Shown: positions 7,901 to 61,232 of the stretch, piece after piece | Layout of the letters: every line of letters begins with the position of its first letter | How positions within the stretch are numbered: the first letter of the stretch is position 1 | From: Candidatus Magasanikbacteria bacterium CG10_big_fil_rev_8_21_14_0_10_36_32 | GTDB taxonomy: Bacteria; Patescibacteriota; Patescibacteriia; Magasanikbacterales; GWA2-37-8 | Direction of reading: 5' to 3' | DNA length: 64,000 nt | Assembly: GCA_002778465.1 (NCBI GenBank) | Contig: PFBV01000005.1 | Span: 7,534-71,533 of the forward strand | Position numbers and translations under genes: made by a program | The notes under the pieces: generated by a model | Seen by the model: the letters and a program-made list of their open reading frames with translations, nothing else | Database searches by the model: none | Told to the model about the DNA's origin: nothing

Positions 7901-10900
7901 AAAAATTGACCCGTCTACTTTATATGGTAATTTAATTTTGGCTCAGGGTCGAACCGCTGCTTCTTGTTTATCTGGTGAAGAAAATGTGACCGGTAATATT
8001 ATTACTACAATAGTCTCGGCTAATTCTGATATTTGGTACAAGAAAGTATGGAAGCAGATTGTTTGGTTTGTGAAAAATTTATTTCAATCAAATACCGCTT
8101 CAGCTTTTAAAACAGATTTAAATTCGGTTTCTTGGTGCGCCGGCAAAGAATCTATAACTACTGAAGTTGTTTATGATCCGTCTGTTTCTTCAGATTCTAA
8201 CGATGTTACTTCCACTGTTAAAATAATTTTAAAGAAAGCTTTGGCGACCAGTACTGATTATGCTGTAATTTTGCGTCCAGGTATTAAAGATTCACGCGGT
8301 GTCAGTATTGGTGTATTGTCCGGAGACATAAATCGCAATTGGAAATTTATTACAGGAGAACAAATTTGTGAATTAACAGATTTATCAATTAATCCGGCGA
8401 CTCATTTATTCCAAAAAGCCGGCAACTCCATTAATTTGGAAGTAGTATCTAAAACCGGTAACGGTCAGCAAATTCAACCGATAAACGGTTATCGTTGGGA
8501 ATATGTATGGGAACCAAAAATTAATGACTATGTAACCCTGACTGTTACTACCAGCACGCCTAATGTAATTACTTCAAAAAATAGGAATGGTGAAATTGAT
8601 GTGGTGGCTGAAAGTAAATTTACTGAAAATATATTTACCGCAACATCTCCGACTTTGCGCGGCAGTTCACATATAACAATATTTTTATGTGAAAATCCTT
8701 GGCCGTCAGTTGCTGATTTGCCGTGGCATGATACGGCGTGGGATTTTTCAACTTATTATTGTCGTGATAGTGGCAGCGTGGGCACGGCTGATGATTTGCC
8801 AAATCTCTCGGCTTCTGTTGAAGATAGTCTGACCGCTCCATACAGACGAAGATATCTGATGACTGATAAAGATTTTACCGATGCCATTGGCATTATGATA
8901 TTCCCAAATCCGGAACATTTAACTGTTCAAGATTGGTATAAAATGAAAAATTTTAAAGGCACATTTACTTCATTAAATATAGATGGTTACTCAGCTATTA
9001 CAGATGGAAATAATTATTATGTTGATGCACTCAATTTAAGTTCATCCGAAAATATTTATACTAATATTTATTTATTTAGTATTAATAGTAATGCTGAACA
9101 GAATATGCGGCGTGTTTTTGAACAGATGATTACTAATTTAAAATTTAATAATGATTTTTTAAATGAAAAATATTGTGGTTCAGATTTTGTAGACGAATCA
9201 GTTAATTATAGTATGCCGTGTCAAAATGATTTGGATTGCTGGACGCAAGTTGATTTGTATAATCAAACCAATCCTTTAACGCCGAGTACTGATTATTTAT
9301 GTTTGAATCAAAAAGATAAAATTCAGAGAAATTATCAGCGTTTGAAAGATGTGAGAACAATAATTGATGTTTTGTCTAATTATAATCAAAATCAACAGAT
9401 TATTAATTCATCAACTCTTGGATTTTATCCATTGATGAAAGATAATACTTATTTAAGCGGACAAGCTTTGAGTGTTTGGCCGGCTGCTTGGACAGGTTTA
9501 GGCAGTGCGCTTGGAGCGTCTATGCCGTCAGATCCGATTAATAAATTAGCTAAAGCTGGCACTTGTTTCCAAAAAAATATTTCAAGCCAATTTACCGCTT
9601 GTACAAAAGATGAAAATTGCGCGGTTCCAGTGACCGATGGAATTGTTAGTCAATGGTTGTCAGATCAAAATCCGACAGACCAGAAAGGTATTAGTGATGC
9701 GCAGCTGGAAGGAGATGTGTCTTATTCAGCCGGAAAAGGACATGGCGATGCTTTTGATATTGCCGGCGATTCAGTCAGTAAATTAATTATTCCTCACAAG
9801 GATAATTATAATACAGAATCATTTACTTTATCTACTTGGATTTATCCACGCAAGAAAAATACCGCTGTTTTATTCCAAAAAGGTGGTTTAAGCAACGGTG
9901 GAGCAAGTTTGGGAGGTTGGGGATTGGAATATAGCGATTGGAGTTACTATGGAGATAGTTTGAGTAGTAAAGTGTTTAATAATGGAACGGTGCGATTTGC
10001 AATTTATCCTTCAGATAGCAGTGATTATAAATATGTGGCTGCTGATTCCGGAGTGCCGTTGGCGCTTAATCAGTGGCATCATTTGGCGGCTGTTTATGAT
10101 AGTACTGATATGACAAATAGAAAGGTTCGTTTATATATTGATGGTTTACCGGCCAGCGCGATAGAACCGGATGGTTGGATTATGAAAGCAGAAAACAAAG
10201 CGGGAGTGATAAGTGTGGTGAATAATGCGGATTTATCAAATAATGGTTTAAATATTGAAGTTGGTCAGAATTTTAATGGTTTGATTGATAATACGATATT
10301 TTACAATAAAGCATTGAATTTGGATGAAGTTAATAATTTATACAGAGGAGTTTGTATTATTCATGACAGTTTAACCGGTTGGAGTGTTGAAGACAGAAGA
10401 TTCAGTTTTTCTTGTAATCCGTTATCTTATGCTTACCGTTATATTTATGATACTGTTAATCGCGATTTTGATTTAAGACTAAATATAGAAGAAGATGGAA
10501 TTAATCCGGCTAATTGGCCTATATTCATTTCAGAGTTTGGTATTGATTCCGGTTCGCAAGTGTCAATGGATAGTGTTTGTCAGGCGGATGACGAAGTAGC
10601 TTCGCCGTACAGTTTAGTTTGTGGTGATGGAGTTTTGGGAGGAACGGAAGTTTGTGATCCACCGGGAAAAGTAAATTATGATACCAGTTTATGTCCTGTT
10701 TCAGCTACTAAAAAAATATGCAATAGTTCATGTCAGTGGGGATTGGCTACTACGATTACTTGCGCAGCAGCCACTGGGGCGCAATGTGGTGACGGTAAAA
10801 TTCAAGCCGTAACAGGTGAAGTTTGTGATGACGGTTTATTAAACGGCACTAATGAAAGGTGTAACACAACTTGTACAGGGATAGTTCATAATTGTGGTGA

Positions 10901-12590
10901 TTATTTAGTTCAGACAGATGAATTGTGTGATCCGACATATGGCAGGAAAATTGGTTCAATTGCACAAACCGGTTGGTGTGTCGGCGGTCAATATTTTACC
11001 GATTTAATTCCTGTAGCGTGTAGCTTAGATAGTCAATGTCCTTACACTGGAAAATGCAATAAAACACCTGATGATAAATATGGATTATTGAAAAATAATT
11101 CGTGTAATTGGGATTGTAAAAGTTATGGACCATATTGTGGGGATGGACAAGTTCAAGAGGAGTGGGGGGAAAATTGTGAAACAAATGAAAGTTGTTCCAC
11201 TGTGGGAGTATCTGGTTCAAAAAAATGTAATACAGGTTGCCGTTATGATAATGCGGGAGTAGAAGGGATAATAAGTTATTGGGGCTTTGATTATTATCGC
11301 GCTTCTGATGGTCTTATACCAGATGATAATTATATGTTTATCGGTACTTGCAAGACGGGAGTGGATTGTCCTTCTCTGACTTCTGGAATTTATAATGTGA
11401 ACAGAGCATTTAAATTCAATGGCGCGCAATATGTTCAAATCAAAAATTATTCTTCTTCGTTGGCAACTAAAACAATATATCCGCAATTTACCGTGGAAGC
11501 ATGGGTAAAACCTGATTCTGATAATACCTATCATGCCAGAGTTTTTGAAGAAGGTGGGCAATATAACAATGGCGGTTATGGTTTGGAATTTAGAACCTAT
11601 GATGATATTAATATTAATAATTTTAGATGTACAACTTGGGATGTTGGAAATATACTTTCTAAAGTTGATTCTAATCCGGTCAATACAAATGAATGGCATC
11701 ATGTTGTTTGTACTTTTAACGGGGCAACATACGGCATAGATAAAATAAAAGGTATTTTATCTATTTATGTTGATGGTGTTTTGCAGGAAGCCACTTCTAC
11801 TGCGGTTATGGCAAAAACCACTTATCCGTTGTGTTTTGGCAGTAAATGTGTCAAAACATCTTTGGGTGGTTATACTCGTTCTGCAATCAATGCATTTAAA
11901 GGTTTAATAGATAATGTGGCTTATTATTCTCGCGCATTACCATTGGAAGAAATTCAGGAACATTATGCCGCAGTAAACGGTTGGTATTGTACAGCCGGTG
12001 GCAAAACACCGGAATATTCAACTTGTGGTAATAAAGTTGTGGAAGAGGAAGAAGTTTGTGATATGGGAGATAAAAATGGTGCCGCATGCATTCCTCAATA
12101 TCCTTATACCAGCTGTACCTATTGTTCAGCTGATTGTAAAAGTGTAATTACGGTTGATACTATGTGTGGTAATGGAGTTTGGGATTATGCTGGAGGAGAA
12201 GAGTGTGATTTTAGTAATATTCTGACTGATTTTGTTAGAAATTATACAACATATCTTTCAGACAGATGTTTTGAGTGTCAATCTAATTGTACTTTTAAAA
12301 CTCCGCCTATTTTAAATACACACAACAGTCCATGTGATTTACACGGGTTAGGTTATTGCGGTGATAATATTAAAAATGGATGGGAATATTGCGATGGTAC
12401 TGATTGGGGTTCTTATTTTGAAACCTCTGCGTGTTATGAAGATGGTTATTGGGGTTATTTGACTTGCAATTCTTGTTTAAGTTTAGATTGTATACATGGA
12501 TATTGTGGTGACGGAATTATACAATCTCCGCCCGAAGAGTGTGATGGTGCATGGAATTGTTCCGTCAATTGCCATTTCTTTTCATTATAA
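1995..12590 (+). CDS. Giant (3531 aa) cell-surface protein. Signal peptide, TrbC/VirB2-like pilin domain, about four IPT/TIG repeats, three LamG (concanavalin A-like) domains and several clusters of CGDG...EECD cysteine-rich repeats.
   Basis: Single uninterrupted ORF. The N-terminal hydrophobic signal is MLSSDKRKFFWSLLLTVICGGLWLGVG. The pilin-like motif YAGFTWMTAGGNEDKIATAKKILFNAAIGLVIILSAF follows. IPT/TIG-like repeats are seen as ITNIDPMAGATGTTYVTISGRYFG, LQPKSGAPYTTNVTLTGINFGG, IFEITPNKGAKGQYITIIGKNFG and ICKIDPVSGP...ELIGEHL. LamG signatures are DDVRIYDKALSAGEVAAVYNN, IDNTIFYNKALNLDEVNNLY and IDNVAYYSRALPLEEIQEHY. The repeated CGNGIVEAGEDCD / CGDGVVSPNEECD / CGDGKIQAVTGEVCDDG / CGDGIIQSPPEECD motifs resemble the Myxococcus-type cysteine-rich repeat. 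Confidence 0.8.
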   Translation: MLSSDKRKFFWSLLLTVICGGLWLGVGFTLAQTTPDLGLAQVGEGIGLPATDIRLIVARIIRAALGLLGIVALGLTLYAGFTWMTAGGNEDKIATAKKILFNAAIGLVIILSAFAIVSFVISNLISATTGLPAHCSNGVIDAGEEGVDCGGECPACGGGTTPYGPSNVFYVKQKPSGFTCIRNYYPLVVFNHPVNLSTLENNLIVRRQDNQEQAVGTWQFASETIQNIVKFVPEGDCGSPPNDCLEASTLYELYFANASAIKSQTNLTLNCSLDATCATSEFTTGESVDRQPPTVIISSPADSSNLEKGTTVPVNVSYWDDNGIQNISLFDNEYYVDSVQVSNCETTGSVTINWPTASAVMTTHTLETIGFDWSAATGTDSVVVYLRPSHCFNNIQDVSLGEIGIDCGGECGLCGGSACSSDGECASGYCEIPPGVCVNKMIITNIDPMAGATGTTYVTISGRYFGENGGHVYFTKIGGGWAEAPIVSCGSGIDNWTQSQLIVSVPNNAADGAIKVETATTPLHDSFVDVTDGSDNWGGIYYFDVNNQQRPGLCNLQPKSGAPYTTNVTLTGINFGGTENRVVFGAGTGAFNALIKNWSNALINAKVPGMAPGTVGVKVIAMQGGGEEVSSNGMAFTVTEDINLDTPIIFEITPNKGAKGQYITIIGKNFGSNKGKVYFKLNGDQSGILGDFNFPDECGSNFWTDTKIIVKFPQAAIEIPGEYSVQVQRSTDNALSPIGAYFQAQTGSPGPGICKIDPVSGPVPFAEGKYMELIGEHLIGAQPYFWRAIASSSTIEGRLPASVETWSENNIFALPPAMALSGPVVVYRASDSKMSNSINFTVFNCLENNNTCTQAENKCCLQGTDAGMCIPKNEMCDGETRSTGYMWRFGTRDLPVVPRVIERCNSDTELALNIPSPSPSTIWNTGGVTDHVNVCRTALVTVVFNTAINPTTVDLNNVQIFKCVSSTINKNICTHDGGSISLNPESYVLHNDTSELSDDFYLTIKPDTVGGAWSDETWYQVILKSDIRAEAVAAGSLMATRPCGSGTSYCFIFKTDSTDCRLKEVVVTPLDYWTGVLERPIQYRKVKDNADDPGVEFWYRGNGLSEQKCVWMNMDSYSWNWGVSSENYASIYFANQNQAQVSALANTVAVGLADDAVRVRATASKGAFTVPPPPSIDISDGLVGWWNFDDDGAKVVDNSGNYHDGTPQSGVTYISPGKIGTALNLNGSAAVILDNPTVGFPSGMDSRTICAWGRPTDTAGGWRWVFAYGDGVEGRAMFIGQNGTSLDGGAYGADYDIIVNNFWQPGVWHHVCLTYDGDAQVANLYTDGAWNTSMTLEWKLKLNRAYIGAQVHVSPNEFWKGAIDDVRIYDKALSAGEVAAVYNNLSAAPTPTVTSPESKTGEGLLHIDLSQPKVLDYWPKCLSACTNAEIGAKFNTIMANYNLSAVKLYKCSDENCLSKEDITSGINPLFKLSDRRYLEMPLISGELEKNTIYQIVLSASGTSTSDGVNQLWSGASTTNDVILSKPYQQEFTWRFRTKQEKCQPSKVNILPPSYVASYIKEKAVYTAEAFTSPDDCNPNGQRLNPWLLNWNWTNSSNAVATIQTFVTKGHNNLCTAKCLKKGSDILFGSSVIEPICGNGIVEAGEDCDVPEKITGVSACGLNCLYLGNTSSTCGNGIIETNLGEECDLAVSQGCSSNCLNMGSNQYTGAEEIGASICGNNQIGFGEDCDIGVKGDRLVVTSSLYCSEKCLHLGTPLSAKWCYDNVATYGGFSLSEFTTACQKAISQCGDGVVSPNEECDAGIYASSTCSTNCLLLSNCTVGMEGCTTEGQLAGSSLMYSVPSVCGDAIQGIGEAIGCEQGFVISHTFNNPWVLATGVGDGPTIGLPPTQQTTITGQATAFSVSGEGKFIIPCGYHSDSECNAGDASGSLGVAQNTCCYSRPQIIKTYPVMSPLPVNVCPNTYIEIKFNKKIDPSTLYGNLILAQGRTAASCLSGEENVTGNIITTIVSANSDIWYKKVWKQIVWFVKNLFQSNTASAFKTDLNSVSWCAGKESITTEVVYDPSVSSDSNDVTSTVKIILKKALATSTDYAVILRPGIKDSRGVSIGVLSGDINRNWKFITGEQICELTDLSINPATHLFQKAGNSINLEVVSKTGNGQQIQPINGYRWEYVWEPKINDYVTLTVTTSTPNVITSKNRNGEIDVVAESKFTENIFTATSPTLRGSSHITIFLCENPWPSVADLPWHDTAWDFSTYYCRDSGSVGTADDLPNLSASVEDSLTAPYRRRYLMTDKDFTDAIGIMIFPNPEHLTVQDWYKMKNFKGTFTSLNIDGYSAITDGNNYYVDALNLSSSENIYTNIYLFSINSNAEQNMRRVFEQMITNLKFNNDFLNEKYCGSDFVDESVNYSMPCQNDLDCWTQVDLYNQTNPLTPSTDYLCLNQKDKIQRNYQRLKDVRTIIDVLSNYNQNQQIINSSTLGFYPLMKDNTYLSGQALSVWPAAWTGLGSALGASMPSDPINKLAKAGTCFQKNISSQFTACTKDENCAVPVTDGIVSQWLSDQNPTDQKGISDAQLEGDVSYSAGKGHGDAFDIAGDSVSKLIIPHKDNYNTESFTLSTWIYPRKKNTAVLFQKGGLSNGGASLGGWGLEYSDWSYYGDSLSSKVFNNGTVRFAIYPSDSSDYKYVAADSGVPLALNQWHHLAAVYDSTDMTNRKVRLYIDGLPASAIEPDGWIMKAENKAGVISVVNNADLSNNGLNIEVGQNFNGLIDNTIFYNKALNLDEVNNLYRGVCIIHDSLTGWSVEDRRFSFSCNPLSYAYRYIYDTVNRDFDLRLNIEEDGINPANWPIFISEFGIDSGSQVSMDSVCQADDEVASPYSLVCGDGVLGGTEVCDPPGKVNYDTSLCPVSATKKICNSSCQWGLATTITCAAATGAQCGDGKIQAVTGEVCDDGLLNGTNERCNTTCTGIVHNCGDYLVQTDELCDPTYGRKIGSIAQTGWCVGGQYFTDLIPVACSLDSQCPYTGKCNKTPDDKYGLLKNNSCNWDCKSYGPYCGDGQVQEEWGENCETNESCSTVGVSGSKKCNTGCRYDNAGVEGIISYWGFDYYRASDGLIPDDNYMFIGTCKTGVDCPSLTSGIYNVNRAFKFNGAQYVQIKNYSSSLATKTIYPQFTVEAWVKPDSDNTYHARVFEEGGQYNNGGYGLEFRTYDDININNFRCTTWDVGNILSKVDSNPVNTNEWHHVVCTFNGATYGIDKIKGILSIYVDGVLQEATSTAVMAKTTYPLCFGSKCVKTSLGGYTRSAINAFKGLIDNVAYYSRALPLEEIQEHYAAVNGWYCTAGGKTPEYSTCGNKVVEEEEVCDMGDKNGAACIPQYPYTSCTYCSADCKSVITVDTMCGNGVWDYAGGEECDFSNILTDFVRNYTTYLSDRCFECQSNCTFKTPPILNTHNSPCDLHGLGYCGDNIKNGWEYCDGTDWGSYFETSACYEDGYWGYLTCNSCLSLDCIHGYCGDGIIQSPPEECDGAWNCSVNCHFFSL
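2127..2370 (+). other. TrbC/VirB2 pilin-like two-helix domain inside the giant protein. It is paralogous to nt 7-240 of the first ORF.
   Basis: The two segments align directly: GLPATDIRLIVARIIRAALGLLGIVALGLTLYAGFTWMTAGGNEDKIATAKKILFNAAIGLVIILSAFAIVSF versus GLPATDIRLIIARIIRVALSLIGIVVLVIIIYGGYLWMTAGGNEDQIGKAKKVLFNAVIGLVIILSAYAIVSF. Confidence 0.55.
3310..4525 (+). other. Block of about four IPT/TIG-like beta-sandwich repeats within the giant protein.
   Basis: A repeating pattern is visible: I..I.P..G..G..VTI.G.NFG at each repeat start, and KVYF / RVVF strands further on. Confidence 0.5.
5545..6150 (+). other. LamG / concanavalin A-like lectin domain 1.
   Basis: GNYHDGTPQSGVTY...LNLNGSAAV...WHHVCLTYDG...DDVRIYDKALSAGEVAAVYNN is the canonical LamG_3 C-terminal strand motif. 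Confidence 0.6.
6890..7450 (+). repeat. Cluster of tandem cysteine-rich repeats (C-x-x-C-G-[DN]-G-[IV]...EECD). Similar clusters occur at about 10600-11230 and 12140-12585.
   Basis: The cluster contains ICGNGIVEAGEDCD, CGNGIIETNLGEECD, ICGNNQIGFGEDCD and CGDGVVSPNEECD; the later clusters repeat the same theme. Confidence 0.55.
9750..10350 (+). other. LamG / concanavalin A-like lectin domain 2.
   Basis: FDIAGDSVSKLIIPHKDNYNTESFTLSTWIYPRKKNTAVLFQKG...WHHLAAVYDS...IDNTIFYNKALNLDEVNNLY. Confidence 0.6.
11280..11970 (+). other. LamG / concanavalin A-like lectin domain 3.
   Basis: AFKFNGAQYVQIKNYSS...FTVEAWVKPDSD...WHHVVCTFNG...IDNVAYYSRALPLEEIQEHYAAVNG. Confidence 0.6.
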
Positions 12591-34904: not shown

Positions 34905-34912
34905 AATAAAAA

Positions 34913-34934
34913 AGTCCGGCACGGTGGCCGGACT
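34913..34934. terminator. Bidirectional hairpin (agtccggcacggtggccggact) between convergent secA and the minus-strand gene.
   Basis: 8-bp GC stem with T/A runs on both sides. Confidence 0.5.
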
Positions 34935-34950
34935 TGAAAAAAGAACGAGT

Positions 34951-35445
34951 TTAGATGAGAAGAGGATAAAGATTTTTTCGGTAAATGATATCGCTTCCGC
35001 TACTGAGACGGTACAAATCCGTTTCACCGACAATTTGATAGCGGTGCTGCGTCAGGAACAGCCTGATTCCGAAATTATTTGCTTTGGCGTCGCAGAGCAC
35101 ATTAACGGATCCGAATTCCATCGTTCCTTCAATCTCGGCATTTTTGATGAGAAAACTGGCAAGGTAGCGTCCGCGCAGGTCTGGTCTGACTGTAAGATTT
35201 TTTAGCTCAAGGGTTTTAGTATATTTTTTATGGCGCTGATACACCATTACCCCGACAATCTGATTCAGTGAAAGCGCGATGATAACTCTTTTGTTTCCGT
35301 CCTTGATTTCCTGATGCGTTTTCTGCACCCAATCCTCGAAATCAGGATAATTCGCGTGAGGGGTCCACAATCGCGGACCCAAGAGATAATTAACAATCTC
35401 ATCTAATCTGGAAGTTGGATATTCATTGGTAAATCTGAAATCCAT
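34951..35445 (-). CDS. Hypothetical protein of 164 aa, possibly a small acyltransferase-like fold.
   Basis: Intact ORF convergent with secA. No confident motif. Confidence 0.4.
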   Translation of the reverse strand: MDFRFTNEYPTSRLDEIVNYLLGPRLWTPHANYPDFEDWVQKTHQEIKDGNKRVIIALSLNQIVGVMVYQRHKKYTKTLELKNLTVRPDLRGRYLASFLIKNAEIEGTMEFGSVNVLCDAKANNFGIRLFLTQHRYQIVGETDLYRLSSGSDIIYRKNLYPLLI

Positions 35446-35582
35446 TTTAATTTTTTCTCCTTATTTCTGTTGTTTATTGATTTTATGATTAGTTGAGACA
35501 AAGAACAAACTATTTATAATATATTTTAAAGGTTTTGTCAAGATAGTACTCAATATGTAGAATATTGCATAATCATAAAAAT

Positions 35583-35764
35583 AACCCCTCCGTTGCGGGA
35601 GGGGTTGGAAAGAACTTCGTAGCGTTGGGGACCGATTTACGTCGGGAGCAAAACCGCCAGCGCGGCGACCTCCTGATTTTATCGGGCAATTGCTGCGGGG
35701 TTATAATTCTCCGCATCGTTGATTGGAACAATCACTGGTTTGTCCAGACAACACGGAGGGTTAT
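35583..35764. ncRNA. Candidate structured non-coding RNA or cis-regulatory element. A GC-rich island of about 180 nt is closed by a long-range stem, in the divergent intergenic region. Strand and class are undetermined.
   Basis: The 5' segment ataacccctccgt is complementary to the 3' segment acggagggttat. Internal hairpins include cccctcc/ggagggg, ccgc..gcgg and gattg-gaa-caatc. The segment is strikingly GC-rich against AT-rich flanks. The overlapping 71-aa ORF is probably spurious. Confidence 0.35.
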
Positions 35765-35817
35765 GATAATAAAAATATAGCAAATTTATATAAAATTGTC
35801 AAGTATCTAATAATAGT

Positions 35818-36234
35818 ATGGATAAATATCAAAAGATAGTCACAACAGGATGTCTTATGCAAAATAATAAGGTTTTAATAGTGCGTCGCTCTGATGCAGA
35901 AACATTTTTACCCGGTTATTATGAAATGCCGGGAGGAAAATGCGATTTTGGAGAAAATCCAGAAGAAAGTTTAAAACGAGAATTTAAAGAGGAAGTTGGA
36001 TTAAAAATAGAAGCTACTAAACCGTATAGGATTTTTTCATATGTGTCGGATGAAGGAAAGAGACATACTGTTGAGATTGTTTATTTAGTAAAAGATGGTG
36101 AAGGTGAGATTCAATTAGGCAAGAATCATGTTGAGTATATTTGGATTACAAAAGATGAAATTAACAAATACCGAATTTCAGATGAGATAAAAATTTCAAT
36201 TTTGAAAGGTTTTGAAGAATTTTCACAGATGTAA
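35818..36234 (+). CDS. NUDIX hydrolase.
   Basis: Nudix box GGKCDFGENPEESLKREFKEEVGL, matching Gx5Ex7REUxEExGU. Confidence 0.75.
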   Translation: MDKYQKIVTTGCLMQNNKVLIVRRSDAETFLPGYYEMPGGKCDFGENPEESLKREFKEEVGLKIEATKPYRIFSYVSDEGKRHTVEIVYLVKDGEGEIQLGKNHVEYIWITKDEINKYRISDEIKISILKGFEEFSQM

Positions 36235-36245
36235 AAATAAAAATT

Positions 36246-36845
36246 ATGAATTATCAGACAATACTGTTTGATTTTGACGGAGTATTATGTAAGGGGCGAT
36301 TTTATGAAAAAACTTTGTTGCCGGATTATCCTGAAGTATACGATTGGATTCAGTTAAATATTTTTAAGGATAAAGAATTAGTTAGAAGATGGATGAGAAA
36401 TCAAATTGATTCAATTGAGATTAATAAATTGATTAGTCAAAATACGGGTATAGAATATGAGATTTTAAAGAAGTTGTATAAAGAAAGTGTTAGGAATATT
36501 AAACTGGATGATAAATTGGTTGGTTTAGCTAAATCTATAAAATTGTCCGGTAAAAAAATCGGAATTGTAACAGACAATATGGATATATTTACTCAAATTA
36601 CTGTTCCGAATCACCGGCTTAATGTATTGTTTGATGTCATAATAAATTCGGCGGATTATGGCAGATTGAAAAATGAAGATAATGGCAAATCATTTGATGT
36701 TGCTTTATCCGATTTAGGTGAAAAAATTGAAAGTAGTTTAATGATAGATGATTCAGAATCGACGATTGAATTATATAAAAAGAAAGGCGGACACGGATTT
36801 GTATATAAAAATATTGAGGAATTAAAATCGTTTTTACGGGTATAG
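36246..36845 (+). CDS. HAD-superfamily hydrolase.
   Basis: Motif I ILFDFDGVL at the N-terminus; Asp-rich motifs later in the protein. Confidence 0.6.
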   Translation: MNYQTILFDFDGVLCKGRFYEKTLLPDYPEVYDWIQLNIFKDKELVRRWMRNQIDSIEINKLISQNTGIEYEILKKLYKESVRNIKLDDKLVGLAKSIKLSGKKIGIVTDNMDIFTQITVPNHRLNVLFDVIINSADYGRLKNEDNGKSFDVALSDLGEKIESSLMIDDSESTIELYKKKGGHGFVYKNIEELKSFLRV

Positions 36846-36856
36846 AAATAATAAAC

Positions 36857-37427
36857 ATGAAAATAATACTAGGTTCACAATCAAAGGGTCGGCGGGGAGT
36901 TTTAGAAAAAATGGGATACGAATTTGAAGTAATGCCGTCTAATATTGATGAAGAAGAAATCAGATTAGAAAATCCGCAGGAATTAACTTTGGCTTTGTCT
37001 TACGTAAAAACTAACGCTTTATTGTCAAAAATTAAAGAACCGGCAATTTTAATCACTTCTGATCAAGTAGTCTGTTGGAATGGAACGGCTTCGTGAAAAA
37101 CCGGAAAACGAAGCTCAGGCAAGAGAATATTTATCTCGGGCAGTTGAATATCCTTTGGAAACGGTTACGGCTGTAGTGATTACTAATACTGTCACAGGTA
37201 AACAAGAGGAAGGAATAGATGTTGCAAAAGTTTATTTTTTAGATATTCCGGAAGAAACAATTGAAAAATTAATTAAAGAAGGACATATTTTTCATCAGGC
37301 TGGAGGATTTTCTATTGATGACCCGTTAGTGAGAGATTTTGTCAAACAAATTGAAGGGGAGCCGGAAAGTATTATTGGTTTGCCGAAAAAATTAACTGAA
37401 AGATTGATAGGGGAAGTTAAAAAGTGA
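36857..37427 (+). pseudogene. maf: Maf-family nucleoside triphosphate pyrophosphatase, split by a +1 frameshift near 37075-37085.
   Basis: The N-terminal half MKIILGSQSKGRRGVLEKMGYEFEVMPSNIDEE...ITSDQVVCWNG ends at TGA. The C-terminal half ERLREKPENEAQAREYL...IGLPKKL continues in the next frame. Together they form one Maf-length protein. Confidence 0.6.
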
Positions 37428-37507
37428 AAGCCTTTTGTCCACTTGCCAAAATTATAAAAAAGCGTTAAAATCACTGAAAATATATTTTTATTTAATTTAT
37501 CAGTTTT

Positions 37508-46112: not shown

Positions 46113-47015
46113 ATGGACGAATTTTTGGAAATGAGAACACACCAGAGAAAAGATTGGTTAATTAAGTTAGCAGTTGTAATTATATTATCTGGTTGTCTCG
46201 TAGTGTTTTGTTGTTGGGTTTTTCCTCAGATGAGCTTGTCACCAAGCGTAACTAAGGCATTTATACCTGAAACACTGCCGCCGGCACAGTCTGATCCGAT
46301 GGATAGGTTGGAAAATGATTTGCTCTCTGCTTCGTTCGTTGTGTATGGTTTTTCAAAAGATGGAGAACACAAAAACATTCAATGTTCGGCTACAGTTTTT
46401 GAAAAAGAAGGCAATATTTATCGTTTAATAACTTCTGCTCATTGTTTGGTTGAAGATGAACAATACGATGGTATTGTTAGAGTGTTGCCTTATAATATTT
46501 TCATCGCCCATAACAGTTTGGACAGTCTAATTTTTTCTGCTCGACTGGTTGCTATTGGTTTTCAAGGTCGCTATGATGATTTTGCTGTATTGCAAGCGGA
46601 AATTGTAGACGATACGATTCCTGCTATTCCATTAGCCAAAAGTGACCCGGTGATAGGCGAAGAAGTGGTGAATGTTTCTTTTCCGTCTCTTGTTGGTCGG
46701 CAGTTGGTTAGAGGAATAACAATGATTGAACAAGTAGAAATAAGTTCGGGTGAGATGAAGGGGGATAAAGTTACTGTTTTTGATTTAACTTCTGGTTCTG
46801 GTTCGTCCGGTTCGGCCATTGTTAGTCGAGAACAAAAAGCCATTGTTGGTGTTTTGACTGGTGGTTATTCACAAGAAGGCCAGTTGTTAAATGAAACAAC
46901 TGTAGGTTTGCCGGTTAGCAAGTTTCGTATTTTTTGGGAAGCGGTTAAGGCCGATGAATACCCGTGGTACCAGTCATCCGAAGAGTCGGTTGGTAGTGGA
47001 GACTTTTTATATTAA
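46113..47015 (+). CDS. Secreted trypsin-like serine protease, paralog 1 of 6 (S1/Trypsin_2-like).
   Basis: AGGAGG ribosome-binding site 8 nt upstream. N-terminal transmembrane or signal segment. Catalytic motifs TSAHC (His), DDFAVL (Asp) and GSGSSGSAIV (Ser). Confidence 0.65.
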   Translation: MDEFLEMRTHQRKDWLIKLAVVIILSGCLVVFCCWVFPQMSLSPSVTKAFIPETLPPAQSDPMDRLENDLLSASFVVYGFSKDGEHKNIQCSATVFEKEGNIYRLITSAHCLVEDEQYDGIVRVLPYNIFIAHNSLDSLIFSARLVAIGFQGRYDDFAVLQAEIVDDTIPAIPLAKSDPVIGEEVVNVSFPSLVGRQLVRGITMIEQVEISSGEMKGDKVTVFDLTSGSGSSGSAIVSREQKAIVGVLTGGYSQEGQLLNETTVGLPVSKFRIFWEAVKADEYPWYQSSEESVGSGDFLY

Positions 47016-47040
47016 GGATTAGAGTTTTATTTTATTTTTT

Positions 47041-47066
47041 ACCCCGCCTGTTAAGGTGGGGTTTTA
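47041..47066 (+). terminator. Intrinsic terminator (accccgcctgttaaggtggggtttt).
   Basis: Hairpin followed by a T-run. Confidence 0.6.
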
Positions 47067-47241
47067 ATTTATTATGGTCTATAATTTATTGTTATTTTAG
47101 CCAAAAAAATGATGCATCAAAAATAAATAAAAACACTTGACAGTTTTTTTGTTGTTTGTTACATTACATTTGGTTCTTTTAAAAATTAACTTTTGGTAAA
47201 AACATTTTTAAACAAGTGACTTAACCCACGAGGAGGGTGAA

Positions 47242-48162
47242 ATGGAAAAGAAGATGTTTGGTTTCGTTATGTTTATTATGGCATTCGTTTGCGCAATGAT
47301 GCTCAGCGGGTGTGGAGCAGTCAGTTTCTATAGCGGTTCCAATACCGTGATCAATGCCAGTGGCAATAGCCATTCCGTCAGTGTCCTAGAGAAGGATATG
47401 GAATCGGCCGTGGCTCTGCTTTACGCCAAGAAGGATGACGGGCAGCTGCGCATGTTCTGTACAGCAACCGCTTTTGAGCGTTCGGGTAAGACTTACCGTT
47501 TTGTTACCGCCGCACATTGTGTCGCCGAAGATATCAACGGCATGGTGGAACTGGTACCGTACCAGTGGTTTATCAGTTTCGACGAACCGGGCGTCAAGAC
47601 ATTTTATCCTGCCAAACTGCTCGGCGTTGGTTATCAGAGTCGCGGTGATGATTTCGCCGTACTGGAAACCACCCTGGATCGCCAGATTCCGGTTATTCCG
47701 ATGTCAGCTACCGATGCCGAACTCGGTGAACAGGTAAGTAATGTCGCTTCGCCGCTCGGTTTGGGCAAGCAGCTCTTCCGCGGACATGTGACCACTGTTT
47801 ATATGGACAGGCCTGTTGTAGGTGCCGGTCTTAATTGGACAGGTGCAACATTGCTTCAAATCAGTTGCGGACCCGGATCTTCCGGTTCGTCTGTAGTAAG
47901 TCAGAACAGACACACTATTGTTTCTATTCTGGTCGGTATGATTTACCGAGGTCCGGCGGTGTTCATTGTTTCCATTCCGGTAACAAAGTTCAACCGTTTT
48001 TGGAGAGATATTCAAACCAATAAGTACCCTTGGTACGCGCCTGCCTTCAATGCCAACGGAATTCCCGTTTCTACAAGCAGCAGCCAGCGAGATCTTTCGA
48101 ACTTTATGAATCGGATTGATCGTGGTCTGTCGGTTGTTTTGGAACCGGAACCCACTAAGTAA
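47242..48162 (+). CDS. Secreted trypsin-like serine protease, paralog 2, with a lipoprotein-like signal.
   Basis: GGAGGG ribosome-binding site. Signal MFGFVMFIMAFVCAMMLSGCG. Catalytic motifs TAAHC, DDFAVL and CGPGSSGSSVV. Confidence 0.65.
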   Translation: MEKKMFGFVMFIMAFVCAMMLSGCGAVSFYSGSNTVINASGNSHSVSVLEKDMESAVALLYAKKDDGQLRMFCTATAFERSGKTYRFVTAAHCVAEDINGMVELVPYQWFISFDEPGVKTFYPAKLLGVGYQSRGDDFAVLETTLDRQIPVIPMSATDAELGEQVSNVASPLGLGKQLFRGHVTTVYMDRPVVGAGLNWTGATLLQISCGPGSSGSSVVSQNRHTIVSILVGMIYRGPAVFIVSIPVTKFNRFWRDIQTNKYPWYAPAFNANGIPVSTSSSQRDLSNFMNRIDRGLSVVLEPEPTK

Positions 48163-48190
48163 ACCTACCAAAAGCTCTTTAACACTCCTA

Positions 48191-48217
48191 ACCCCCAATG
48201 AAATTTGGGGGTTTTTT
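48191..48217 (+). terminator. Intrinsic terminator (acccccaatgaaatttgggggtttttt).
   Basis: Hairpin followed by a T-run. Confidence 0.6.
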
Positions 48218-48327
48218 ATGTTATTATGTTTGACATTTTTTTGTAAAAATGCTTTAATAGCTCAAGTTCCTTACAACAAAACAATATTGTCCTCTGCCAA
48301 ATGGAAAATGGGGACGAAGGAGGAGTG

Positions 48328-49092
48328 ATGAGACAAAATTGTATATGGTTGGTTATTTTGGTAGCGATTATGTTTTCAATGTTGACGACCAGTGTTTCGT
48401 CCGATGAAATATCGGATCAACAGCTGGAAAGAGATCTTCAGAAAGCTACTGCCACGGTGTATATTAATACTGATGAAGGAGATATGGAACCAATATGTTC
48501 AGCTGTGGCGTTCAAGCGCGGAGCTGATAATACTTATTATTTTATCACTTCATCTGATTGTCTCGGTGATGACCTGGTTGTGAGTTTATTTGGAGATGTT
48601 ATTACTGAGATGGATTTTTATCTTGCTTTCAATCAAGCCGGCAAGGTAAAAATGTTTCCGGCGAAGATTACTCAAGTTATTCGTAGTCAGCAATTGTATG
48701 GTGGGGGAGTTGTAATTTTTCAGTCAGTTCTTTATTGGAATATTCCGGTTATTCCACTGGCGACTGATTCAATGAAAGCCGGTGAAAAAATAATTAATTA
48801 CTCCCTGATCAGTAATCCGGATCAGCCCATATTTAATGGTTGGGTGACCAGAATGAAGGTTTCAAAACCGTTAGTGGTCAATGGAATAGAAAATTTCAAC
48901 GCCATTGTACTTTGTGTGAATCAGAATATAGACAATAAATTGGCTGTATCTGATCCGATAATTGTTAGTCGTGATCAAAGAGTCATTGTAGCTATTTTTG
49001 TTGGCACGGCTAATTATTTTGGGGTGAAAAAGCCGGCCGCTGTTCCTATCAATAAAATTATTACATCCGCACCCACAGAAGACAAACAGTAG
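48328..49092 (+). CDS. Degenerate paralog 3 of the protease family, a predicted catalytically dead pseudo-protease.
   Basis: The family N-terminal signature is retained (CSAVAFKRGADNTYYFITSSDC), but His is replaced by Asp (TSSDC), and the DDFAVL Asp motif and the GSSGS Ser motif are both absent. AGGAGG ribosome-binding site and N-terminal transmembrane segment are present. Confidence 0.55.
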   Translation: MRQNCIWLVILVAIMFSMLTTSVSSDEISDQQLERDLQKATATVYINTDEGDMEPICSAVAFKRGADNTYYFITSSDCLGDDLVVSLFGDVITEMDFYLAFNQAGKVKMFPAKITQVIRSQQLYGGGVVIFQSVLYWNIPVIPLATDSMKAGEKIINYSLISNPDQPIFNGWVTRMKVSKPLVVNGIENFNAIVLCVNQNIDNKLAVSDPIIVSRDQRVIVAIFVGTANYFGVKKPAAVPINKIITSAPTEDKQ

Positions 49093-49108
49093 ATTTTTTG
49101 TTCATTTT

Positions 49109-49140
49109 AACCCCCGACATTGTTCGGGGGTTTTATTTTT
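49109..49140 (+). terminator. Intrinsic terminator (aacccccgacattgttcgggggtttt).
   Basis: Hairpin followed by a T-run. Confidence 0.6.
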
Positions 49141-49235
49141 TCCTCATAACTTGACTGTTTATTCAACCGTATGTTAATGTAATTATACAGGTTCTTTAAC
49201 AAACAAAATAACCAATTGCCTTAGGGAGGCTTCAA

Positions 49236-50195
49236 ATGGACAACAGAACGTTTAAACAAATTTGTCTTATTGCCGGCATTACATTGGTCGGCTCCATGCT
49301 TGTGGTGTTGTTGTGTATGGTGGCTTTTATGGCTGGTTCTATGAATAATCGCTTGGTTGTTCAACAGCCAATTTATGGCTACGCGCCTCCGCCGTCGATT
49401 TCCGAATCAGAGGAATCGCTTGCGCAGTTGGAAAATGACGCAATCAATGCTACTGCCTTGCTATATTTTGAAAACAAATCCGGCGGAATGGATTTTTATT
49501 GTACCGCCACCGCTTTTGAGAGGGTGGGTCATTACTATAAATTTCTTACCGCCGCGCATTGTGTTTCCAGTGACGATACTGTCAATAAAATGGTTCGTAT
49601 TAAGCCGGGGAAATGGTATATCAATTTTGATATGCCTAACAATAATGAATTTCATAGAGCGAACGTACTCGCTGCCGGTTATATGTCAGACGGAGATGAT
49701 GTAGCGGTATTGGGGGCTTATCTGGATGATTTTAACCCGATTATTAATTTGTCTCAGGAAGACGCTGTAATCGGTGAACGCATAATTAATATTGCTGGTC
49801 CGCGTGACCTTGGAAAGCAGCTTATTCGGGGTAATATCAGCCAAGTAACTCCTGGGAGAGGTTCGTTTTTGAGTGATAGAATAATGATTCAGATTCATAG
49901 CGGTGGTGGTTCGTCCGGTTCGGCGATTATTAGCCAGAATAAGAAAGCAATTGTTGGTGTATTGGTAGCTGGTTTCGGTGGTTTTTTTCAAATGGAACCG
50001 TTTTACGATGTAACTGTAGCTGTTCCTATTGGAAAGTTTCATCGTTTTTGGGCAGCTATCAAAGCGAATAATTATGAACATTTTAATTTTGAAAGTTATG
50101 AGCCGACAAATCAGCTTTCAAAGGATATGGACACTCCGGTTGATTCCGACACTGGAACAGATGCTGGAGTTGATTGTTCTAATTCGGACAAATAA
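49236..50195 (+). CDS. Secreted trypsin-like serine protease, paralog 4.
   Basis: GGGAGG ribosome-binding site. N-terminal transmembrane segment. Catalytic motifs TAAHC, DDVAVL and SGGGSSGSAII. Confidence 0.65.
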   Translation: MDNRTFKQICLIAGITLVGSMLVVLLCMVAFMAGSMNNRLVVQQPIYGYAPPPSISESEESLAQLENDAINATALLYFENKSGGMDFYCTATAFERVGHYYKFLTAAHCVSSDDTVNKMVRIKPGKWYINFDMPNNNEFHRANVLAAGYMSDGDDVAVLGAYLDDFNPIINLSQEDAVIGERIINIAGPRDLGKQLIRGNISQVTPGRGSFLSDRIMIQIHSGGGSSGSAIISQNKKAIVGVLVAGFGGFFQMEPFYDVTVAVPIGKFHRFWAAIKANNYEHFNFESYEPTNQLSKDMDTPVDSDTGTDAGVDCSNSDK

Positions 50196-52280: not shown

Positions 52281-52307
52281 TTAGAGTGTTGTACTTTTCG
52301 GCAAGGT

Positions 52308-52377
52308 TCCGAGACTAGGATTCGAACCTAGATAACGAGATTCAGAGTCTCGTGTCCTACCATTAGACGATCTCGGA
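52308..52377 (-). tRNA. tRNA-Gln (anticodon CUG).
   Basis: Manual cloverleaf. Acceptor UCCGAGA/UCUCGGA, U8. D-arm GUCU-AAUGGUA-GGAC. Anticodon stem CGAGA/UCUCG with loop CUCUGAA (U33, CUG, A37). T-arm CUAGG-UUCGAAU-CCUAG. Discriminator A. CCA is not encoded. Confidence 0.8.
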
Positions 52378-52412: not shown

Positions 52413-52456
52413 ATTGGTGAGGGGGCGGGCCTAGACCTGCCTGCCGGCAGGCAGGT
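52413..52456. repeat. Right inverted-repeat arm followed by a GC-rich perfect palindrome (cctgcctgccggcaggcagg).
   Basis: Read directly. It sits between the full tRNA and the partial tRNA copy. Confidence 0.5.
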
Positions 52457-52500
52457 AACGAGATTCAGAGTCTCGTGTCCTACCATTAGACGATCTCGGA
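52457..52500 (-). repeat. 44-nt exact duplicate of the 5' half of tRNA-Gln (acceptor 5' strand through the anticodon stem).
   Basis: Identical to 52334-52377. It lacks a T-arm and acceptor 3' strand, so it is not a functional tRNA. Confidence 0.7.
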
Positions 52501-59351: not shown

Positions 59352-60140
59352 ATGAGTCAGAAAAAAGAGTCTATGAGTCGTTTGGAAAAAGATTTGCTGG
59401 CGGCTACAGTTTTTTGTATCATGATTGTAAATATAACGGTTAAGGATGAAAAAACCGGCAGGAAAAAGAGGCAGGACGATGTTCGTCAATTTTCCGCCAC
59501 CGCCTTTGAAAAGGAAGGCAACATTTATCGATTTATAGCGGCGGCGCATTGTATTGGTGACAATAATCAGATGTGTGATGATATTATGAATAATTCGTTG
59601 AAAATTCCTCCCATGATTTATTTGTCCAAAAATAGTCTGGCTACTAAACAGGGTATCTATAGAGCTAAATTAGTAGCTATGGGAAAATTGTCTGAAGGTG
59701 AAGATTTTGCCGTTTTGGAAGCGGAAATAAACGATTGTGAAATAACGGTTATCCCATTAGTAGATTCTAATTTGGAAATGGGCGATGAAGTCATTAATAT
59801 TGCCACGCCAATTGGTTGGGACAAAACATTGTTTCGTGGTTATGTCGCCAATCTAAATATGGATAAATTTAAATATTCCATCGGAGAAGATTCAATTGAA
59901 ATTAAAACTGCCATACTGTGCAGTCTGCCATCTGGACCTGGTTCTTCCGGTTCAGCCATTGTCAGTGAAAAACATGGCGGCATTGTGGCAATTTTAGTAT
60001 CCAGTTTGAAATCCGGAAAAAAAACAATTGCGCCCGTTTCGGTTGTTTTACCGATTAGAATGTTTAAAGAGTTTTGGAAGATGTTTAAATTGGAAATTAA
60101 ATCTAATCAATATTTTGAAGAAAATATTGATTTTGTTTAA
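59352..60140 (+). CDS. Secreted trypsin-like serine protease, paralog 5.
   Basis: GGAGG ribosome-binding site. Start at MSQKKESM. Catalytic motifs AAAHC, EDFAVL and SGPGSSGSAIV. Confidence 0.65.
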   Translation: MSQKKESMSRLEKDLLAATVFCIMIVNITVKDEKTGRKKRQDDVRQFSATAFEKEGNIYRFIAAAHCIGDNNQMCDDIMNNSLKIPPMIYLSKNSLATKQGIYRAKLVAMGKLSEGEDFAVLEAEINDCEITVIPLVDSNLEMGDEVINIATPIGWDKTLFRGYVANLNMDKFKYSIGEDSIEIKTAILCSLPSGPGSSGSAIVSEKHGGIVAILVSSLKSGKKTIAPVSVVLPIRMFKEFWKMFKLEIKSNQYFEENIDFV

Positions 60141-60198
60141 TTTAGAGGTTGTCACGGAAAAATCGGCTGAATAATATTTTTTGTTCTTTCTTAAATTT

Positions 60199-60223
60199 AC
60201 CCCGATTCAAATCGGGGTTTTTA
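60199..60223 (+). terminator. Intrinsic terminator (accccgattcaaatcggggttttt).
   Basis: Hairpin followed by a T-run. Confidence 0.6.
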
Positions 60224-60305
60224 TTTTATCTCTTGACCATCTTATATATAGTTGGTAGATTACCTTATTGTTCTTTTACAATAACAACGCTTAAGGAGGC
60301 GAAAA

Positions 60306-61232
60306 ATGGTTAAGAAGAATGAATCCGGACTTGTTACTCAACCTAAAGAAAGTTTTTTGTCGCCATTGGAACAAAAGGCGATGGCGGCAACCGGTGTGAT
60401 GACATCTATGATGGAAGCTGTAGATAGTGCTACTGGAGAAAAATTTTTGATACCTCGGGGTATGTGTACAGCCACGGCCTTCAAACGCCGTGGCAATGTC
60501 TATTATTTTATTACCGCCGCGCATTGCGCTGGTATAGCCGGACCTACTCAGGGTGATATGTGTTTACCTGAAGATAGTGATCGTGGTTTTATTAGAGTAA
60601 TGCCATGGAAATGGTTTATTGATTTGAGCGAAGGCGGTTTATCACTGTCTGTTTTGCATGAAGCAGAACTTTATTCCATTGGTCACACTGGACAAGGCGA
60701 TGATTTTGCTGTTTTTAAAGTTAAGTTGCAAAAACCTATTCCAGTTATGCCACTGGCTCTCTGGGATCCGCGAGTTGGTGAGCCCGTCATCAATGTGGCC
60801 GCGCCGGCGAATTTGGGCAAGCAGCTTTTTCGTGGTCATGTCAGTAGAGAATATTTTTCGACTAGGGGTGACAAAGATGCGGGAAAGGTTTTGTTTCAGT
60901 TGCCGTGCGCCCCAGGTTCTTCCGGTTCGTCCATTATTAGTCAGTCGCAAAAAGGTATTATTGCTATTTTGAATGAATCAATTAGTATTTCTTCGACCAC
61001 AGATGATGGTAAAGAATTTGTTACTCAACTTAATTCTGCCGCTTTGCCTGTTAGTCGGTTCGTGAAGTTTTGGAAATTATCCGAAAAAGGTGAATACCCT
61101 TATCCGGCTTTTGTTCCGTTGAATTTTCAGCCATGGATGCTTGGCTTGGAGGATATACCCGAATTAAACGATGCTTGTGGCAATTGTGAAGGTTGTGAAT
61201 GTCATTCTAAAAAAAACATTCACGGAAGATGA
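60306..61232 (+). CDS. Trypsin-like serine protease, paralog 6 (no obvious N-terminal hydrophobic segment).
   Basis: AGGAGG ribosome-binding site. Catalytic motifs TAAHC, DDFAVF and CAPGSSGSSII. The C-terminus is Cys-rich (CGNCEGCECH). Confidence 0.65.
   Translation: MVKKNESGLVTQPKESFLSPLEQKAMAATGVMTSMMEAVDSATGEKFLIPRGMCTATAFKRRGNVYYFITAAHCAGIAGPTQGDMCLPEDSDRGFIRVMPWKWFIDLSEGGLSLSVLHEAELYSIGHTGQGDDFAVFKVKLQKPIPVMPLALWDPRVGEPVINVAAPANLGKQLFRGHVSREYFSTRGDKDAGKVLFQLPCAPGSSGSSIISQSQKGIIAILNESISISSTTDDGKEFVTQLNSAALPVSRFVKFWKLSEKGEYPYPAFVPLNFQPWMLGLEDIPELNDACGNCEGCECHSKKNIHGR

Follow-up and report, generated by a model that had tools for sequence, protein, structure and literature searches.

The window, that is, the whole 64-kb stretch of DNA analyzed here, belongs to a Candidatus Magasanikbacteria bacterium (Patescibacteria/CPR) annotated within the CG10_big_fil_rev sample series, a name that probably refers to Crystal Geyser groundwater. 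It contains a GNAT-like acetyltransferase gene on the minus strand and, on the other side of an intergenic region, the NUDIX, HAD and split Maf genes on the plus strand, the same neighbors that a preliminary description of the sequence had listed. The GC content is 0.46-0.58 across 35550-35750, compared with 0.22-0.32 in both flanks (100-nt windows), and the mean GC of the element is 0.519 against 0.365 for the entire window, which bears out the GC-rich island in AT-rich surroundings noted earlier. The plus strand of the island folds at -81.1 kcal/mol (z -5.7; 0/200 shuffles as good), and the minus strand at -63.6 kcal/mol (z -3.5 against dinucleotide shuffles). The unit is somewhat bigger than the extent first given for it, 35583-35764, with an RNA of approximately 35576-35767 and a promoter reaching 35802.

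The interval between secA and secDF (window 34905-37507) is a variable cassette site by comparison with L007 (8766-8846), L107, L109, L088 and L091. In L007, the closest GTDB genome, the site is empty and secA directly abuts secDF; hence, the GNAT-RNA-NUDIX-HAD-Maf block lies in a variable region. Elsewhere, the cassette holds changing sets of small "house-cleaning" genes, including NUDIX, HAD, Maf, MazG, dCMP deaminase, HIT, NYN, ASCH and GNAT. The Maf gene of the window is split into overlapping plus-strand ORFs (36857-37096, 79 aa, and 37080-37427, 115 aa), as it also is in the independent assemblies L001-L004 of this organism; it is either a pseudogene disrupted by a frameshift or a gene expressed through programmed frameshifting.

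Other features of the window include a tRNA-Gln(CTG) gene (52305-52377, minus strand), which is the sole tRNA in the 64 kb, and, at a distance of 123 nt, a partial copy of this gene (52453-52500; 48 nt, 98% identity) that is not among the called tRNAs. About five paralogous genes with repeated segments (families D2-D7) are found at 46383-50000 and 59490-61000; these include the motif ACCGCCGC(A/G)CATTGT, which would read TAAHC, presumably resembling the motif around the catalytic histidine in S1 serine peptidases. Several of these paralogues are followed by near-identical ACCCC...GGGGTTTT terminators (family D8). Additionally, four Cys-rich coding repeats (TGTGG[TC]GATGG...TGTGAT = CG[DN]G...CD) occur within large ORFs at 6899-12062, which suggests repeat-containing surface proteins.

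Homologues of the island were found on four metagenome contigs (L086, L110, L111 and L112), which together with the window copy (W) form a family of at least five members in differing genomic contexts; the contigs are of the CPR type and the hosts appear to be CPR/Patescibacteria, as established for the window genome only. L086 was reached through GNAT homologues (GNAT 85% identical; nhmmer E of 6e-39 for the element), and L110, L111 and L112 were found only through spurious ORF calls covering the element, as a phmmer search of a 71-aa ORF of the island against 1.8 billion proteins returned three short ORF "proteins" at 45-61% identity. A covariance model (R1) gives 171-182 bits for all five members, scores that are not independent, R1 having been derived from those very sequences, and it had no further match elsewhere in the ~0.8 Mb of fetched loci. 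The element is absent (nhmmer and covariance model) from 80 secA loci of GTDB genomes, and absent as well from the closer secA relatives P0048 (82% identity) and P0049 (78%), which have other small genes between secA and secDF, and from the GNAT loci L087-L092 and L113. A metagenome scan with a purine/pyrimidine-degenerate core pattern gave 14 chance matches, missed a known contig of identical sequence and used a pattern that L110-L112 could not match, so its negative outcome carries little weight. No similarity was found in viral contigs (4 patterns) or in plasmid and phage collections.

The flanking genes differ in all five loci. They are GNAT and NUDIX in W; GNAT and a fragment that is DUF5680-like in look, unconfirmed and without a Pfam match, in L086; an ISNCY transposase and a convergent gene in L110; an MFS transporter in L111; and small ORFs, a tRNA and a Mur-ligase C-terminal fragment in L112. 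In L110, ~180 nt separate the RNA promoter from the end of the transposase gene upstream of it (686-1540, minus strand; NCBIfam score of 259 bits against a cut-off of 250), and an ORF downstream of the RNA in L112 resembles a transposase N-terminus, with no family match. In L111, a GC-rich, strongly self-complementary stretch at 800-1000 (GGACCACCCGCCUUUUGCGCGCG...CGCGCAAAAGGCGGUGGU) adjoins the RNA homologue and has no Rfam match at E<=1. L086 contains a second candidate sRNA unit just downstream of its GNAT gene (1283-1475, plus strand), with a TTGACA-17-TGcTATTTT promoter and a structured RNA of ~160 nt (z -4.85) that ends in a hairpin followed by U7. This second unit has neither an Rfam match nor a counterpart in the window, is flanked by ~30-nt direct repeats (TTTTTTTATTGTCCACAACACTT), and its 5' end (CCGCAACGGAGAGUUCUUUC) has a 10-mer and an 8-mer in common with the 3' end of the window RNA.

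The elements of a transcription unit bracket the island on its minus strand (Table 1). The sigma-70-type promoter of W scores 11/12 in the promoter/terminator scan, with a TG preceding the -10, and the same scan detected the intrinsic terminator on this strand, whose hairpin folds at -16.8 kcal/mol (z -3.2); the two enclose ~190 nt. This hairpin accounts for the local pairing with GGGAGGGG that had been described as a structural alternative: the pairing exists and is the 9-bp hairpin at 35583-35606, scored here as a minus-strand intrinsic terminator. Other terminators of the window share the ACCCC...GGGGUUUU type (family D8). An own promoter and an own intrinsic terminator around conserved non-coding sequence is the arrangement by which sRNA genes are generically recognized, and the island shows it.

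Table 1. Features of the GC-rich island and its surroundings (window coordinates; W, window copy; L086 and L113, related contigs; A1, minus-strand alignment of the family).
Feature	Position	Strand	Details or basis
GNAT-like gene	34951-35445	-	
GNAT promoter, -35 box (TTGACA)	35535..35540	-	Lies beyond the RNA terminator; kept in W, L086 and L113
Intrinsic terminator	35576..35606	-	9-bp hairpin AACCCCUCC-CGCAAC-GGAGGGGUU (35606-35583), then AUUUUUAU
Single-stranded linker, ~12 nt including GA at the SL2 foot	35607..35617	-	Same length in all members
SL2, 80-nt irregular hairpin, most conserved part	35618..35697	-	Pair counts, folds
Invariant CUGG, SL2 apical loop	35657-35660	-	Alignment A1
SL1-SL2 junction, 11 nt, A/U-rich, GAAUU conserved	35698..35708	-	Alignment A1
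SL1, 50 nt	35709..35758	-	P1 of 10 bp: 35749-35758 with 35709-35718
P2 within SL1	35740-35747 with 35723-35731	-	RNAalifold consensus, pair counts
Invariant CCAG, SL1 loop	35735-35738	-	Alignment A1
Predicted transcription start (A)	35767	-	7 nt past the -10; inferred from promoter geometry
Sigma-70-type promoter of the proposed RNA gene	35774..35802	-	TTGACA 35802-35797, 17-nt spacer ending TGC (extended -10), TATATT 35779-35774
71-aa ORF over the RNA gene, spurious	35565..35780	+	Codon-position variability, stop/frameshift in relatives
52-aa ORF, spurious	35573-35731	-	Same codon-position partition

L086 and L110 also have both the promoter and the terminator on the RNA strand according to the scan, and L112 has a promoter recognized by eye (TTGACA-16-TGCTAGCCT) and, by folding, a hairpin followed by U7; in L111, neither a recognizable promoter nor a U-rich terminator tail was found. 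The distance from the -10 to P1 is 15-16 nt in W, L086, L110 and L112. The promoter hexamers are kept across the relatives with diverged spacers, and the terminator hairpins, unrelated in sequence, are followed by U runs and lie in the same location. A compensatory change in the terminator stem between W and L086 was considered and rejected, the differences being in the loop. Downstream of the RNA terminator, the GNAT promoter has a -10 hexamer that is present but weak (TATAAA in W, judged by eye). It is strongly indicated that a strong sigma-70-type promoter is directed towards the GNAT gene and, equally, that transcription of the RNA stops before the GNAT promoter, at an intrinsic terminator belonging to the unit.

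The RNAalifold consensus of the minus-strand alignment A1 has 44 pairs, arranged as two independent stem-loops, SL1 and SL2; a terminator completes the family architecture. In this shared structure, 94.5% of the cells are paired and 8 pairs (11 cells) are changed on both sides; the observed paired fraction, double changes and covariation score were reached by 0/500 shuffles, to be read with the five members amounting to ~3-4 lineages, which leaves covariation statistics little power. Sliding the partners by 1-3 columns reduces pairing to 30-41%. Furthermore, each of the five RNAs folded singly (minimum energy) has SL1, SL2 and a hairpin at the terminator position. The search for homologues and covariation proposed in the preliminary description thus yielded four relatives and a paired consensus, and its claim of a conserved structured non-coding RNA is upheld, now as a family of five that is absent from Rfam.

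In SL1, the 5' strand of the RNA pairs in P1 with CGAUGCGGAG (family consensus). According to the pair counts, helix 1 has 98% of its cells paired, and in helix 2, 5/8 pairs are changed on both sides. SL2 consists of four helices in the pair counts (helices 3-6), or of five (P3-P7) when subdivided by hand, with 88.6-96% of the cells paired and two pairs changed on both sides. Its internal loops are GAAA / CGUAWA and UCNC, the former of which we take to resemble the bulged-G (S-turn) motif. Past the GA at the foot of SL2, the 3' hairpin begins 12 nt downstream in all four of the members folded separately. The identity between members is 79-92% in SL2 versus 57-78% in SL1, and between W and L086, SL2 is 90-92% identical compared with 70% at the third codon positions of GNAT, a difference that would point to selection on SL2.

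Of the two stem-loops, it is SL1 that indicates the strand: it has 86/90 paired cells on the minus strand versus 77/90 on the plus strand, where 13/90 cells are unpaired, each of them an A-C-type mismatch or worse. SL2 does not distinguish the strands, with 122/130 paired cells on the minus and 124/130 on the plus strand. Excluding the W copy, the transitions in helices result in 11 wobble pairs versus 3 A-C mismatches on the minus strand. The W copy has 3 wobbles and 4 C-A/A-C mismatches on this strand, the latter being G-U pairs on the plus strand, and because these four substitutions keep G-U there, the plus strand of W folds better (-81 vs -64 kcal/mol). This could mean drift of the W copy, or a local role for its plus strand as well.

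Here it is proposed, with a probability of about 75%, that the island constitutes a gene in its own right, transcribed from the minus strand as a separate unit and specifying a structured small RNA of ~190 nt.

The preliminary description had written the element on the plus strand, ahead of NUDIX-HAD-Maf. Read in this way, it would be a leader or riboswitch at the 5' end of that operon, transcribed from a promoter-like site at 35535-35563. The very stable fold of W on this strand (-81.1 kcal/mol, z -5.7), the score of 10/12 of the upstream site and the four W substitutions whose G-U pairs exist only on the plus strand are in line with such a leader; however, the promoter, the terminator and the wobble pattern of SL1, which loses 13/90 paired cells on the plus strand, all give the minus strand. 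In addition, the scan found no plus-strand terminator or sequestering structure ahead of NUDIX, NUDIX-HAD-Maf is downstream in 0/4 homologues, and the promoter-like site is not conserved, its L086 counterpart (TGTCAAGA) being the GNAT -35 box read backwards, all of which makes this orientation very improbable. A rival reading on the minus strand would make the RNA a cis-regulatory leader (riboswitch or attenuator) of the GNAT gene, with SL1 and SL2 as the sensor, the terminator hairpin (35606-35583) as the expression platform, and the 5' end as an anti-terminator competing for the terminator 3' half. The order of promoter, structured RNA, terminator and co-oriented GNAT gene in W and L086 agrees with this, and so does the weak -10 of GNAT's own promoter in W. 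The complementarity of the element's ends (AUAACCCCUCCGU / ACGGAGGGUUAU), which had been pointed out before, is indeed in the sequence, and the minus-strand duplex of 5' end and terminator 3' half reaches -17.6 kcal/mol in W (2/500 shuffles as good) and -18.0 kcal/mol in L086 (0/500). In these two members, the 5' end could pair with the terminator 3' half, and both ends would be locked together after release. The duplex is, however, only moderate in L112 (14/500 shuffles as good) and absent, at chance level, in L110 (98/500) and L111 (196/500). It is a lineage-specific alternative in W and L086 that lies outside the family architecture, and the closing helix that had been suggested from it does not stand as conserved architecture, the consensus being two stem-loops plus the terminator. 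Moreover, L113, L087, L088 and L091 have GNAT homologues without the RNA, and L110, L111 and L112 have the RNA without GNAT, the next gene in L110 even being convergent. The GNAT gene of L113, from the same 90%-identity cluster as that of L086, lacks the RNA unit and has a different upstream sequence, and the homology between the two loci begins exactly at the GNAT -35 box, so the RNA unit is separable and GNAT has its own promoter. The GNAT of L087 is 73% identical to the window's, with only ~100 nt upstream of it in its locus. Since the neighbors differ at each locus and GNAT occurs without the RNA, the RNA is not regarded as a cis-regulator; the earlier suggestion of a riboswitch finds no support in the same observations, and a GNAT leader in particular is improbable.

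A small protein gene, or what is left of a MITE-like mobile element bounded by terminal inverted repeats, is extremely improbable. For a protein speak the three ORF "proteins" recovered by phmmer; against it, the variable sites are spread flatly over the codon positions (24/52, 26/53 and 22/52, in a partition that also covers the minus-strand frames), there is an in-frame stop in L086 and a frameshift (1-nt deletion) in L112, and the ORFs over the element differ in their starts and lengths (47, 56, 71, 71 and 104 aa). A word-index protein search with the ORF gave no match. The 71-aa ORF is therefore spurious, as had been supposed, the check for protein-level conservation having come out negative, and its apparent conservation is a by-product of nucleotide conservation. 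P0168, P0169 and P0172, recorded as hypothetical proteins of 56-104 aa in public protein collections, are members of the RNA family and are mis-annotations caused by the GC-rich RNA gene. For a mobile origin, the ends of the island resemble 12-nt inverted repeats, the unit lies in a variable region missing from L007, the closest genome, where secA abuts secDF, and transposase genes are near two homologues; yet the "inverted repeats" are a strand of SL1 and the terminator stem, the island occurs as a single copy in the 64-kb window and once per homologous contig, with no more in ~0.8 Mb of fetched loci, and conservation extends to its promoter and terminator. A trans-acting base-pairing (antisense) sRNA, from the same gene and strand, would pair a short exposed segment with mRNAs, for example occluding Shine-Dalgarno sequences, through the C/U-rich linker UUCUUUCC, the CCCUCC 5' end or the CCAG loop. 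Promoter, hairpins, single-stranded linker and terminator are typical sRNA architecture, and the linker plus terminator 5' half of W and L086 (UUCUUUCCAACCCCUCCC) is complementary to GGAGG-type ribosome-binding sites. The linker, however, is not conserved outside these two members (GAAUUUUAGCCC, GAGUUCCAUCCC and GAGUUUCAUUUC in the others), invariant single-stranded stretches never exceed 4-5 nt, and it is in SL2, in its helices and internal loops, that most of the conservation lies; such a role is unlikely.

Regarding the function of the independent small RNA gene, we infer action in trans, in which the RNA would most likely bind proteins or serve as a scaffold. Protein binding is favored, weakly, over seed pairing because the conservation of SL2 exceeds what pairing needs and there is no long conserved single-stranded stretch; taken alone, this mechanism is tentative, at somewhat less than an even chance. 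Among the loop nucleotides, invariance is limited to CCAG in SL1 and CUGG in SL2; these two motifs are mutually complementary and might form a loop-loop contact between the two stem-loops. It is rather doubtful, as a further step, that the RNA is a subunit or dedicated partner of an unrecognized ribonucleoprotein widespread in CPR/Patescibacteria, as a lineage-specific housekeeping RNA; in such a particle, the S-turn-like internal loops of SL2 would serve as the protein platform and the CCAG/CUGG contact would lead to a compact fold.

CPR/Patescibacteria have tiny genomes that have shed most regulatory machinery, and to our knowledge almost nothing is known of their non-coding RNAs. A strong promoter of its own and an 80-nt domain kept at 79-92% identity across unshared flanks suggest that the RNA has a function worth keeping. 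With a covariance model, strand, ends and structure, the family offers a testable handle for CPR transcriptomics and pull-downs. It also calls for caution in annotation, as three of the five members stand in protein databases as hypothetical small proteins.

Regarding known RNAs, Rfam 15 gave no match for the window at the gathering score, for 35400-35900 at E<=10, or for L086 and L110-L112 at E<=1; the permissive searches returned only terminator-driven sub-threshold matches, none of them common to the five elements. The earlier statement that tmRNA, RNase P, SRP and the TPP, FMN and cobalamin elements are not matched agrees with this check, which likewise gave no match to other known riboswitches, T-boxes, ribozymes or known sRNAs. 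In the literature on CPR small and structured RNAs, no description of this RNA was found. Retron msr-msd, IS110 bridge RNA, tracrRNA, TIGR arrays and group I intron fragments were considered and rejected, with RT, recombinase, Cas and tRNA halves absent nearby.

Among the known systems, 6S RNA (ssrS, RF00013) is a regulator that binds sigma-70 RNA polymerase by open-promoter mimicry and templates pRNA, and a divergent RNA of this type had been suggested for the island. The likeness consists of a stand-alone, highly structured gene product of ~190 nt, found in several reduced genomes, whose ends can pair in W and L086. However, 6S RNA is a single end-to-end rod with a large central bubble, whereas the conserved fold here comprises two independent stem-loops whose end pairing is not conserved, and the 6S model had no match even at E<=10 on 500 nt, nor on the homologues; a 6S-type RNA is very improbable. 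Bacterial SRP RNA (4.5S, ffs) is similar to SL2 in being a long irregular hairpin with strongly conserved internal loops and flanking helices, a pattern that a platform for protein binding would be expected to show. It differs in that SL1 is an additional domain here, the apical loop of SL2 is GCUG or ACUG (RCUG) and not GNRA, helix-8 loop motifs were not recognized by inspection, and the Rfam SRP models have no match. Terminator-type riboswitch leaders share with W and L086 a promoter, a structured domain, a terminator, a co-oriented gene and an alternative pairing that involves the terminator, but the gene downstream of this RNA is not conserved and has its own promoter, and both the gene without the RNA and the RNA without a downstream gene occur. 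The closest parallel in kind comes from the GC-IGR approach of the Breaker laboratory, which reportedly uncovered orphan structured small RNAs as GC-rich intergenic islands in AT-rich bacterial genomes. None of such families in Rfam 15 was matched; the RNA described here has in common with them the GC-rich island, the own promoter and terminator, the covariation-supported hairpins and the narrow phylogenetic range, and it constitutes a new family, outside the catalogued ones, within a kind of RNA already known.
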